44,390 nucleotides of DNA from a virus: IMG/VR virus record IMGVR_UViG_3300030503_000223. One strand, given 5' to 3'. Of the stretch, positions 36,338 through 39,370 are shown piece after piece. The position numbers and the translations under genes were made by a program. Numbering within the stretch: position 1 is the first letter of the stretch; each line of letters opens with the position of its first letter. Under the pieces are notes generated by a model. That model ran no database searches. It was not told the DNA's origin and worked only from the letters and a program-made list of their open reading frames with translations.

Positions 36338-36816
36338 TGGAACTTCTGTTCACCAAAGGCAACACCGGGCTCGTTCCAGCAAGTGACGAAGCGCGCGAGT
36401 GGCTGGATAAGAAGAAGCGTGGTGTCGCAATCATGGTTGAGCCGAGAGAGATCCGAAATGGCGCGTTCTTTCGCAAATGGTGGGCGCTCGTGAAGCTCGG
36501 CTACGAATATTGGGAAGGCAGCGCACAGACCATCGAGTACAAAGGTCATGCAGTGCTTCCCGATTTCGACCGCTTCCGTAAGGACGTGATCATCATGTGC
36601 GGTCACTACCATCCCGTCGTTGGGATCAAGGAGGAAGTGCGCATCGAACCGGATTCCCTGCGTTGGTCGCAGATGGATGAAGGCACATTTGAGAAGCTGT
36701 ACGAAGCAACCATCCGCGTGCTGCTCGCCCGTGTGTTCAATGGGAAGATTTGCCCCGCATGGACCGAGGAACAACTACGTGAAGTCGCGGAGAAATTTCT
36801 TGAGTTCGCGGCGTGA
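36337..36816 (+). CDS. DUF1367-like phage protein
   Basis: 159 aa. REIRNGAFFRKWWALVKLGYEYW resembles the DUF1367 signature as I remember it. Confidence 0.5.
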   Translation: MELLFTKGNTGLVPASDEAREWLDKKKRGVAIMVEPREIRNGAFFRKWWALVKLGYEYWEGSAQTIEYKGHAVLPDFDRFRKDVIIMCGHYHPVVGIKEEVRIEPDSLRWSQMDEGTFEKLYEATIRVLLARVFNGKICPAWTEEQLREVAEKFLEFAA

Positions 36817-37415
36817 AGGCGCACAAGCTTGAAATGGCCTGTGCCGAGTGCGGCCGCTCCTACTTCAAGAGGGCAGATCGCATTCGTGACCCAGATTTCT
36901 GCCGGATCGCGTGCAGGAAGTCATGGGACGCCAGAAGACGATTCGAGTCTCGGGCAAGGGATTGTGAGTATTGCGGGAAGAATTTCATTCCCCGGGCGGC
37001 CCAGCTCCGCGCAGGGGGTGGCAGATTTTGTTCCGTTTCCTGTTCCACACGCGCAATGGGGCATTTGATCCACTCTCCTGAGAGCCGCAAAAAGGCGGCA
37101 GCCACATGGCGAAGGAATGGGAACAAAGTGCCAGAGGGGCCTGGTCATCCGCAGTTTATGGGCCGCAAGTTGGTTAGCGGTTATGTGATGGTCTGGGTGG
37201 ACGATCGCGGCTACATACAGGAACACCGGCTCGTTGCAGAGAAGAGCTTGGGGCGCATGCTTAGGGCTGATGAAGTCGTCCATCATCGCAACGAAATAAG
37301 GACGGATAACCGGCCCGAGAATTTAGCGGTTATGACCCGCGCGGAGCACATGAACGAGCATCGCGACACGCTTGTTACCGCAAGAAAGGCCGTGCCATGG
37401 CGCAAGACCGGTTGA
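36813..37415 (+). CDS. HNH homing-type endonuclease with two N-terminal zinc-ribbon repeats
   Basis: 200 aa. HHRNEIRTDNRPENLAVMTRAEHMNEH is an HNH motif. N-terminal CAECG..FCRIAC and CEYCG..FCSVSC repeats. GTGA-coupled start. Confidence 0.8.
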   Translation: MKAHKLEMACAECGRSYFKRADRIRDPDFCRIACRKSWDARRRFESRARDCEYCGKNFIPRAAQLRAGGGRFCSVSCSTRAMGHLIHSPESRKKAAATWRRNGNKVPEGPGHPQFMGRKLVSGYVMVWVDDRGYIQEHRLVAEKSLGRMLRADEVVHHRNEIRTDNRPENLAVMTRAEHMNEHRDTLVTARKAVPWRKTG

Positions 37416-37678
37416 GCAAGGAGGCAAGAGGTCGTGAGTGCCAAGGTAGGATTCCTGGCGCATGCAATTTTAACTCGGAAACAACGGTGCTCGCGCACTT
37501 CAGACTTATCGGAATTTCCGGCCTCGGTATCAAGGCTCCTTCCTGGTGCGGAGCATGGCTTTGCTCGGGGTGCCATACCTTGGTTGACTCCTGCAAAGAT
37601 GATGACGTCCAACTCGACTTCGCAAAAGCCGTTCTTCGGACCCTCGGCATTCTTTTCACGGAGGGAAAACTGAAATGA
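37397..37678 (+). CDS. DUF1364-like (YbcO-type) putative nuclease
   Basis: 93 aa. CQGRIPGACNFNSETTVLAHFR......G.G.K......AWLCSGCH..VD fits the DUF1364 Cys/His pattern. Confidence 0.55.
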   Translation: MAQDRLSKEARGRECQGRIPGACNFNSETTVLAHFRLIGISGLGIKAPSWCGAWLCSGCHTLVDSCKDDDVQLDFAKAVLRTLGILFTEGKLK

Positions 37679-37715
37679 GCCGCCCGACCGTCATGAAGCA
37701 GAGGAGCTAGGGTAA

Positions 37716-38882
37716 GTGAATAATCCGCTCATGCCGCTCTCATTCACGCGCACTCTGCGTCTGAAAGTTCGCGCCGAGTCCTATCCATGGCTCAATGCTG
37801 CGGCGGTCGAAGTCAATCAGGTATTCAATTGGGCGAATGCGACCAGCTTTGATGCACGCCGCCGCACGGACCTTAAATCCAAGTGGCTCTCTGGCTTCGA
37901 CCTGTGCAACCTGACCAGCGGGGCGACGGAGTATTTCGAGCGGATCGGCGCTGACACGATTCAGTCAATTTGCACGCACTACGCGCAGAAGCGGACAGCA
38001 GCCAAGCGCCTGAAACTACGCTGGCGCGTGAGCCGAGGTGTGCGCCGCTCGCTCGGCTGGATACCGTTCAAGGCGGCGAGTCTCAAGCGACGCGGCAACG
38101 CGCTGCGATTTGCCGGCAAGAGTTTTCGGGTATTCGAAAGAGAGCAACTCGCCGGTGTAAAGTGGCGTGATGGGTGCTTCGCGCAAGATGCAGTCGGGGA
38201 CTGGTACTTGTGTCTGCCGGTCATTGTGACGGCAGAACAGACCGTAGCTCCGATGGAGGCCGTCGGCATCGATCTTGGACTCAAGACCATTGCCACGACT
38301 AGCGATGGCGAGAAATTGGAAGCCGGACGCTGGACGGTCGGTAATGCGGTAGCGCTTGCCAATGCGCAGCGCCGTGGGCATAAGCGCCAAGCCAAGCGGA
38401 TACACCGCAAGACCGCGAACCAGCGCAAGGACGCGCTGCATAAATTCAGCACTGGGATCGTGCGCAGATATCAGACGATAGTCGTTGGCGACGTGAGCAG
38501 CCTCAAACTGGCCAAGACCAAAATGGCCAAGTCCGTTCTGGACTCAGGTTGGGGGATGCTCAAGAACTTCCTGGATTATAAGAGCCAGTCGGCTGCCAGG
38601 AATTTCTCAGTAGTCAGCGAGAGTTACACCAGCGTCACTTGTTCTTTGTGCGGGTCGCTTAGCGGTCCGCGTGGGGTAAACGAGTTGATTGTAAGGTCGT
38701 GGATATGCCGGGACTGTGGTGAGTCCCATGACAGAGACATTAACGCGGCTCTGAATATCCTGACCGCCGGAAGGTGCTCCGGTCCGTGCGCGGGAACGAG
38801 TCTTTCACCGCATGCAGTCGCGTCGAGCACGGCATCTCGCCGTCGCGAGACAGGTAAAAGACTGCGTGAGGTGGCGGCATGA
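37716..38882 (+). CDS. tnpB: TnpB (IS605 OrfB family RNA-guided endonuclease)
   Basis: 388 aa. GAGGAG RBS 9 nt before GTG. RuvC-I is AVGIDLGLK (D186). Zinc finger CSLCG...CRDCG. RuvC-III is HDRDINAALNI. The canonical RuvC-II E is replaced by G258 (IVVGDV), and a Glu lies at 302 (VVSESYTS). Confidence 0.9.
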   Translation: MNNPLMPLSFTRTLRLKVRAESYPWLNAAAVEVNQVFNWANATSFDARRRTDLKSKWLSGFDLCNLTSGATEYFERIGADTIQSICTHYAQKRTAAKRLKLRWRVSRGVRRSLGWIPFKAASLKRRGNALRFAGKSFRVFEREQLAGVKWRDGCFAQDAVGDWYLCLPVIVTAEQTVAPMEAVGIDLGLKTIATTSDGEKLEAGRWTVGNAVALANAQRRGHKRQAKRIHRKTANQRKDALHKFSTGIVRRYQTIVVGDVSSLKLAKTKMAKSVLDSGWGMLKNFLDYKSQSAARNFSVVSESYTSVTCSLCGSLSGPRGVNELIVRSWICRDCGESHDRDINAALNILTAGRCSGPCAGTSLSPHAVASSTASRRRETGKRLREVAA

Positions 38883-39042
38883 GCACCGGGAAACTCGCAC
38901 GCGAAATCTTCTGGTTCCTGATTATTTTGGTCATCGCGACGTGCGTCAGTTTTTTGATACCGCCTGCGGATATTGGGGTGAGCTATCTACCGGGTACGCA
39001 CTGATGGGCCGATCCGCGATTCATTTTACCACTGGAGATATT
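38760..39042 (+). ncRNA. Candidate omega (right-end) guide RNA scaffold of the TnpB element
   Basis: Assigned by position: the 3' end of tnpB plus a 164-nt non-coding tail. Hairpins CCGGA-aggtgc-TCCGG (38767-38782) and TCGCG-t-CGAG-cacggcat-CTCG-ccgt-CGCGA (38818-38847). T-run at 38950-38955. Boundaries are not defined. Confidence 0.35.
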
Positions 39043-39046
39043 TGAA

Positions 39047-39370
39047 ATGACTGCAAAGAAACTCGATGCTGATCAGATCCGTCAGGGAGACGTTCTCATC
39101 GTTCGTGTGGGTGACGCTCCGCGCTCAAAGAGCGAAGGTCGTGTGGTGATCGCGTACGGGGAGGTAACGGGCCACAGCCATCAATTCATGGCCGAAGCCA
39201 AGGTATCGTACCTCGGCCGTGAGGCGGGACTCGACCGCTATGGCGTCCCTGCGACGGCAAAACTCTTGCATGAAGAGCACACCGCCCCTGCCGTGCCGGC
39301 CGGCCTCTACGAGCGTCCGGTACAAGTCGAATGGCAGGACTCGATGGAGCCGCGCATCGTCGCAGATTGA
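39047..39370 (+). CDS. Hypothetical protein with GEVTGHSH motif
   Basis: 107 aa. GGAGA RBS. QGDVLIVRVG...IAYGEVTGHSHQF resembles a recurrent phage protein family of unknown function. Confidence 0.5.
   Translation: MTAKKLDADQIRQGDVLIVRVGDAPRSKSEGRVVIAYGEVTGHSHQFMAEAKVSYLGREAGLDRYGVPATAKLLHEEHTAPAVPAGLYERPVQVEWQDSMEPRIVAD

Follow-up and report, generated by a model that had tools for sequence, protein, structure and literature searches.

Can a TnpB carried by a phage still cut DNA when the canonical glutamate of its RuvC-II motif is missing and, if it can, which residue does the work in its place? The question is posed by a 388-residue protein encoded in the virus record IMGVR_UViG_3300030503_000223, a stretch of 44,390 nt that is called the window here. 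The original prediction, made from the letters of the DNA, was that the glutamate had been relocated to a position 44 residues downstream, with a nuclease-dead repressor as the other possibility. We followed up both readings by comparing the protein with its relatives and with solved structures, and by delimiting the element that carries the gene, its guide RNA and its flanks.

The phage gene encodes TnpB and is under purifying selection

The product of the gene is TnpB: its match to NF040570 over residues 14–350 reaches 181.6 bits (cutoff 100), and both PF01385 and PF07282 are above cutoff. Translation begins at a GTG, where relatives have ATG at the aligned position, and a ribosome-binding site precedes it (Table 1). 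An AlphaFold2 model of the protein, built on an alignment of 79 sequences (alignment A1), has a mean pLDDT of 90.4 and a pTM of 0.83; in a Foldseek comparison of the model with solved structures, it was matched to ISDra2 TnpB (E 4.8e-19, TM 0.69), ISFba1 TnpB (TM 0.70) and ApmFanzor2 (TM 0.71).

Measured against three relatives, the body of the protein has a dN/dS of 0.09–0.19, and the gene is thus under purifying selection at a dN/dS of about 0.1. The tail (residues 346–388) has a dN/dS of 0.5–1.0, which, together with the disorder of residues 358–388 in the model, is consistent with a constraint on the RNA encoded by the gene's 3′ end.

The window is a tailed-phage genome, with genes for a major head protein, a head–tail adaptor, a large terminase, an internal virion protein and tail proteins, bearing out the proposal that this tnpB is phage-borne. 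The structural genes lie on the minus strand; the plus strand just upstream of tnpB holds a NinB-like gene, a 200-aa HNH endonuclease and a 93-aa HNH-type protein. The two HNH-type genes (36813–37678; the 93-aa product belongs to phrog_131) adjoin tnpB, making three consecutive nuclease-type genes after NinB.

Table 1. Coordinates of the features of the tnpB locus, given as positions in the window
Feature	Position	Strand	Basis or remark
8-bp direct repeat TGAAATGA, left-hand copy	37671–37678	+	the 93-aa gene upstream has its stop codon here
Retained inner left end, including the ribosome-binding site	37689–37715 (~27 nt)	+	similarity to relatives from ~37689–37697
GAGGAG before the GTG start (ribosome-binding site)	37698–37703	+	
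tnpB ORF, 388 aa	37716–38882	+	ORF call, Pfam, NCBIfam
D186 codon, RuvC-I catalytic Asp in GIDLG (motif from residue 184)	38271–38273	+	83/83
G258 and D259 codons, canonical RuvC-II position, in IVVGDV (from 255)	38487–38492	+	
E302 codon, alternative RuvC-II Glu, in VVSESYTS (from 299)	38619–38621	+	79/83
Zinc finger CSLC (309, 312) and CRDC (331, 334)	38640–38717	+	each Cys 78–81/83
D341 codon, RuvC-III catalytic Asp, second D of DRD; DRDINAALNI from 339	38736–38738	+	80/83
Predicted omega RNA scaffold	38766–38889	+	overlaps the last 39 codons of tnpB (residues 351–388 and stop)
Right-end terminus of the element, GGCGGCATGAGCACCGG	38873–38889	+	20/20 copies end here
Predicted guide segment, first 16 nt past the right end	38890–38905	+	length presumed from that in other TnpBs
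153-nt stretch from the right end to the right-hand repeat copy	38890–39042	+	not homologous to the flank of any relative
8-bp direct repeat TGAAATGA, right-hand copy	39043–39050	+	the 107-aa gene downstream has its start codon here

A glycine occupies the canonical site and a glutamate is conserved 44 residues on

Translation of the gene places each motif that the original prediction had named (D186, G258, D259, E302, the two CxxC pairs and DRDINAALNI) at the residue given for it. Aligned by phmmer with ISDra2 TnpB (8bf8, 8h1j), residues R250–L263 of the phage protein pair without gaps with R270–D283 of the solved chain. In this alignment G258 stands opposite the catalytic E278 of ISDra2 TnpB, D341 opposite D361, and E302 opposite the proline of the segment VSPYFPSS. 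The canonical RuvC-II glutamate on strand β4 is thus absent from the phage TnpB, as had been proposed, and its absence is clade-wide.

Conservation was assessed over the phage protein and 82 full-length cluster representatives at 33–59% identity to it (n = 83), taken from 1.84 billion proteins that were searched exhaustively, and over A1 as a second alignment. Position 258 is Gly in 82 of the 83 sequences and Pro in the other one, and is nearly invariant in A1; E302 is invariant in A1, and the four exceptions to it among the 83 are mostly sequences that also lack D341 or are gapped there. The alignment of relatives gave no misalignment of the canonical site, and the glutamate put forward as its replacement is conserved. 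It follows G258 at the predicted distance of 44 residues, and six further residues separate it from C309, the first cysteine of the zinc finger. By the secondary structure of the AlphaFold2 model, G258 would lie inside a strand (252–259) and E302 directly after another (296–301), positions that fit the published shift of the glutamate from β4 to β5 of the RNase H fold.

We also weighed whether D259 or another nearby acidic residue, and not E302, might be the third catalytic residue, and give this almost no weight. D259 does adjoin the canonical position. However, position 259 is Asp in 46 of the 83 sequences, Asn in 28 and Gly, Ser, Leu or Gln in the others, an Asp/Asn alternation that argues against a catalytic substitute, and by the alignment with ISDra2 TnpB it would correspond to the D/N that follows the glutamate in canonical TnpBs. 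The nearby D276 cannot be the substitute either, because canonical TnpBs keep it too.

The phage TnpB falls in a published alternative-glutamate class

The original prediction had pointed to a shift of the RuvC-II glutamate by about 45 residues in Fanzor and a subset of TnpBs, and correctly so (PMC10530073, PMC10691335). Fanzors and a subset of TnpBs (TnpB2) lack the canonical glutamate and have a conserved one about 45 residues away; the E467A substitution abolishes the activity of ApmFNuc, the rearranged TnpB of Thermoplasma volcanium (TvTnpB, alternative glutamate E323) cuts DNA in a TAM-dependent manner, and enzymes with the alternative glutamate are without collateral (single-strand DNA) cleavage (PMC10530073). 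The RuvC-II-rearranged clades have been called RIIr; the largest of them, RIIr-5, carries Gly instead of Glu, and some branches, such as RIIr-4, are virus-enriched (PMC10691335). The alternative glutamate has also been defined, as Ealt, by its place six residues upstream of the zinc finger, and is searched for with the pattern D-x-G x(120-160) E x6 CxxC x(12-18) CxxC x(4-8) D (PMC10711439). In a cryo-EM structure of Fanzor2, Asp324, Glu467 and Asp501 form the Mg-binding triad (PMC11832414).

Several observations assign the phage TnpB, as judged from its sequence, to this class (Ealt, TnpB2, RIIr). First, the core pattern E-x6-CxxC-x(12-18)-CxxC-x(4-8)-D matches residues 302–341, as it also does in 119 of 120 close homologs. 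The full Ealt pattern gives no match, solely from the gap between D-x-G and E, which is 113 residues where the pattern calls for 120–160. Second, in a phmmer search with residues 292–352, residues 300–352 were aligned to 465–512 of 9b0l_P, and the end coordinates of this alignment, from which the pairing was read, set E302 on Glu467 and D341 on Asp501. Thus the relocated residue is invariant in A1, stands six residues before the zinc finger and maps to a glutamate of proven catalytic function in ApmFanzor2, as expected if the motif had moved as first suggested.

The DPG pattern of RuvC-I gives no match in the phage protein, which has D186-L187-G188 at this site. DPG (Pro at 187) combined with the alternative glutamate does occur in 19 of the 83 relatives (among proteins P0122–P0271), and three of the 83 match the full published pro-Fanzor pattern. 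The combination has been reported as rare (under 1%) and restricted to cyanobacteria.

The relocation, its conservation, its structural rationale, the activity of other members and their presence in viruses are all already published. The novelty of the case was therefore overrated at the outset: the clade is a large one, has been described before and includes members of demonstrated activity.

The same residues bear on the other possibility raised at the outset, a nuclease-dead, RNA-guided DNA-binding protein of the TldR kind, with which the phage would silence a host or phage promoter. TldRs are defined by the retention of at most one of the three DED residues, and many are without the C-terminal zinc-finger and RuvC part. 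The phage protein shares with them the loss of the canonical RuvC-II glutamate and an apparently fixed, immobile place in a phage early region, and prophage-borne TldRs are known. Yet it keeps D186, D341 and all four cysteines, and its replacement glutamate is invariant and is the counterpart of a proven catalytic one. Neither fliC nor oppF stands next to tnpB, whose neighbours are NinB, HNH and unknown genes, and the guide described below matches no promoter in the window. The combination of G258 and E302 is, moreover, common to actively multi-copy elements and so is not a phage-specific loss. With two canonical acidic residues and the zinc finger kept and the fliC/oppF neighbour absent, we regard a dead repressor as very improbable and favour a competent nuclease.

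Covariation points to an omega RNA that ends with the element

An RNA consensus was built by aligning the last 210 nt of 17 copies of the element, and contains 49 base pairs. Compensatory changes are seen in 22 of these pairs, and 94.2% of cells pair, against 36–42% when the partners are slid by 1–3 columns; the observed pairing values were reached by none of 500 shuffles. The phage copy forms 43 of the consensus pairs. The best-supported helices of the scaffold span 38766–38783, 38791–38888, 38811–38867 and 38820–38854, and weaker ones may extend upstream to about 38696. Folded as a single sequence, the RNA is no better than shuffles (z −0.91), so the claim of an omega RNA is drawn from the covariation; an Rfam search of 37400–39200 gave no match. 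On this basis we predict a structured omega RNA at the 3′ end of tnpB that stops at the right end of the element.

The right end itself is sharply drawn. All 20 copies compared end in ...GGCGGCATGAGCACCG(G) and diverge straight after, which fixes the boundary at 38889; the tnpB stop codon (38880–38882) sits within the terminus. By this boundary, the guide would begin at 38890. In a search of the window, the predicted guide found only itself and one chance match with 3 mismatches. In viral_contigs it had 19 exact 16-mer matches, none of which extends past 16–17 nt, and we take these as chance.

Two further features were seen around this boundary. The first 8 nt past the right end (GAAACTCG, 38890–38897) recur at 39058–39065, at the start of the 107-aa gene and about 11 nt after its start codon, and 13 of 19 positions agree between ATGAGCACCGGGAAACTCG at the right end and ATGACTGCAAAGAAACTCG where the 107-aa gene starts. 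Both resemblances may be due to chance or may be what remains of the site of the original insertion or recombination. In addition, a 41-aa hydrophobic ORF (38879–39004) starts at an ATG in the right end (CATGAGC) and reads into the flank. It is a called gene in metagenome annotation, and the outward-facing ATG is found in most aligned copies, with GTG in three.

The element belongs to a mobile family, and the phage copy has lost its outer left end

Close relatives of the phage TnpB (59–78% identity) are encoded in metagenome genomes of Steroidobacteraceae and other Gammaproteobacteria, with several per genome. Copies in one genome share about 1.32 kb at 95–99% identity and differ outside it, which identifies the family as mobile, tnpB-only elements. 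No TnpA family was detected within 6 kb of the phage tnpB.

Unrelated phages carry the element too: what six other viral contigs have in common with the window is the element alone, and not the flanks. One phage-borne copy, at about 4980–6180 of contig L051 (IMGVR_UViG_3300048502_000065), has 82% DNA identity; there is no ORF of more than 1,000 nt near the start of the match, and the last base of its right end is T, not G. It looks like a decaying copy. In contigs L096 (1405–1510) and L097 (960–1065), both with phage-like arrays of small genes, the gene called upstream of tnpB covers the left end completely and shares 8 nt with the beginning of tnpB; these gene calls may be over-extended into the element.

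Every relative that we examined has a left end of about 75–140 nt upstream of the start codon, beginning A-Y-GAAG, and it is present even in the closest relatives (85–87% identity). The phage copy keeps the inner part (Table 1); for the outer ~45 nt, no significant match was found upstream of it. The segment 37663–37688 was considered as a candidate for the outer left end, on a weak resemblance in MAFFT alignments, and was rejected as not significant against shuffles. Full-length copies share A-Y right before the conserved GAAG at the left boundary. A-Y is not separable, as a target-adjacent motif, from the left end itself, because no empty site was found.

The flanks may give a hint of how the block came to lie where it does. 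A directly repeated TGAAATGA brackets 1,372 bp that comprise tnpB, the shortened left end and 153 nt past the right end, and deleting one copy of the repeat with the intervening 1,364 nt would bring the 93-aa and 107-aa genes together in an ATGA stop–start overlap. Within 1.5 kb, many exact 8-mers recur by chance (18 families), so it is the position of this one alone that is suggestive. IS200/IS605 transposition proceeds through single strands and makes no target duplication. The repeat thus hints that the block entered by a route other than classical IS200/IS605 transposition and, if it is real, the guide would come from the flank of the donor.

The block appears to be fixed in this phage. 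Four other metagenome contigs (~40–55 kb) match this 3.1-kb region at 100% identity, the 24 sequencing runs listed as containing the phage sequence are all contig sets of peat metagenomes, from which it may itself derive, with no RNA set among them, and an identity look-up found tnpB in all 24 long contigs that have the downstream 107-aa gene. A phage allele lacking the block was sought further, and none was found: an exact 25-mer of the right flank is absent from metagenome_contigs, the relatives of the downstream 107-aa protein amount to one distant phage at 55% identity, and those of the upstream 93-aa protein are all about 40% identical. A megablast search of the phage collection gave no match.

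Biological role of the phage copy

Taken together, the residues and the RNA make it probable that the phage carries a catalytically competent Ealt-type TnpB–omega RNA unit that has become stranded in its genome. In the mechanism that we propose, the RuvC triad would consist of D186, E302 and D341: Gly258 replaces the canonical glutamate on strand β4, and Glu302, at the end of the next strand, would take over its role. TnpB would be made together with an omega RNA whose scaffold is encoded by the final ~125 nt of the gene and stops at 38889, with the flanking sequence from 38890 as its guide. The complex would then cut DNA in which the target-adjacent motif of the family lies next to a match to the guide. 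The family as a whole comprises short tnpB-only insertion sequences of the IS200/IS605 type that move among Steroidobacteraceae-like Gammaproteobacteria and their phages. Because its outer left end is lost, the phage copy is probably stranded, and would persist either as a passenger that has become fixed or as a selfish gene of the homing type.

A second account agrees with this proposal in all but the biological role: the unit would be competent and irrelevant, a recently stranded IS fragment with some donor flank that entered by illegitimate recombination at 8 bp of microhomology and awaits decay. The outer left end present in every relative is absent here, the 153 nt past the right end are unrelated DNA, and TGAAATGA stands at both gene junctions, with removal of the block restoring the ATGA overlap. 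The phage contigs are 100% identical, so that selection within the lineage is unmeasurable. Against decay, the ORF, the catalytic residues and 43 of the 49 omega RNA pairs are intact and the block is in 24 of 24 long contigs examined; the argument from the repeat, for its part, is positional only, exact 8-mers being common by chance. We consider this account unlikely.

A more active role is also conceivable, and we would put it forward only as a long shot: the phage may have kept the TnpB–omega RNA unit, which has no left end, and may express it from its early operon as a weapon guided by RNA or for homing. It is likewise doubtful that the guide, brought in with the 153 nt of donor flank, directs the cutting of a competing phage or of a host locus in which this sequence lies beside the target-adjacent motif. 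If either use were real, it would be a step towards domestication that is separate from CRISPR and from TldR.

On the preferred reading, a competent and stranded nuclease, the locus provides one more well-documented phage-borne member of the alternative-glutamate clade, with a defined right end, a predicted omega RNA and the guide position that follows from them. Its size of 388 aa, together with the reported lack of collateral single-strand DNA cleavage in Ealt enzymes, would make it a further candidate editor. For phage biology, it raises the question of whether a TnpB that is immobilised and fixed in a genome of lytic type brings the phage any benefit.

Comparison with known systems

ISDra2 TnpB (8h1j, 8exa) is the best sequence match among natural proteins and the top Foldseek match among solved structures. 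The phage TnpB resembles it in domain order, in the residues of RuvC-I and of RuvC-III, in the zinc finger and in an omega RNA that is predicted to stop at the right end. It differs at the two sites discussed above, with G258 where ISDra2 TnpB has E278, and E302 where the latter has a proline.

TldRs, some of which are carried on prophages, are likewise TnpB-derived, and share with the phage gene a fixed place in a phage genome and the lack of the canonical RuvC-II glutamate. In contrast to the phage TnpB, they have fewer than two DED residues, often no zinc finger, and fliC or oppF as a neighbour; none of these traits is found here.

Fanzor2 of mimivirus (ApmFz2/ApmFNuc, 9b0l) is alike in catalytic layout, with E302 and D341 corresponding to Glu467 and Asp501, and in fold (TM 0.71). 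Unlike it, the phage protein has neither an N-terminal extension nor a nuclear localisation signal, its identity to Fanzor2 is about 15%, and it comes from a phage of bacteria and not from a eukaryote or giant virus. The DPG that defines RuvC-I of Fanzors and pro-Fanzors is DLG in the phage TnpB.

The closest correspondence is with the TnpBs described as Ealt, TnpB2 or RIIr. Here the likeness extends to Gly at the canonical RuvC-II site, as in RIIr-5, to a conserved Glu about 45 residues downstream and six residues before the zinc finger, which the model would place at the next β strand, to DRDxN in RuvC-III and an intact C4 zinc finger, and to mobile tnpB-only elements with an omega RNA, predicted here, that overlaps the 3′ end of the gene. 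The phage copy departs from this class in being without the outer left end and, from the Ealt search pattern, in a D-x-G-to-E spacing of 113, which is below the range of 120–160.
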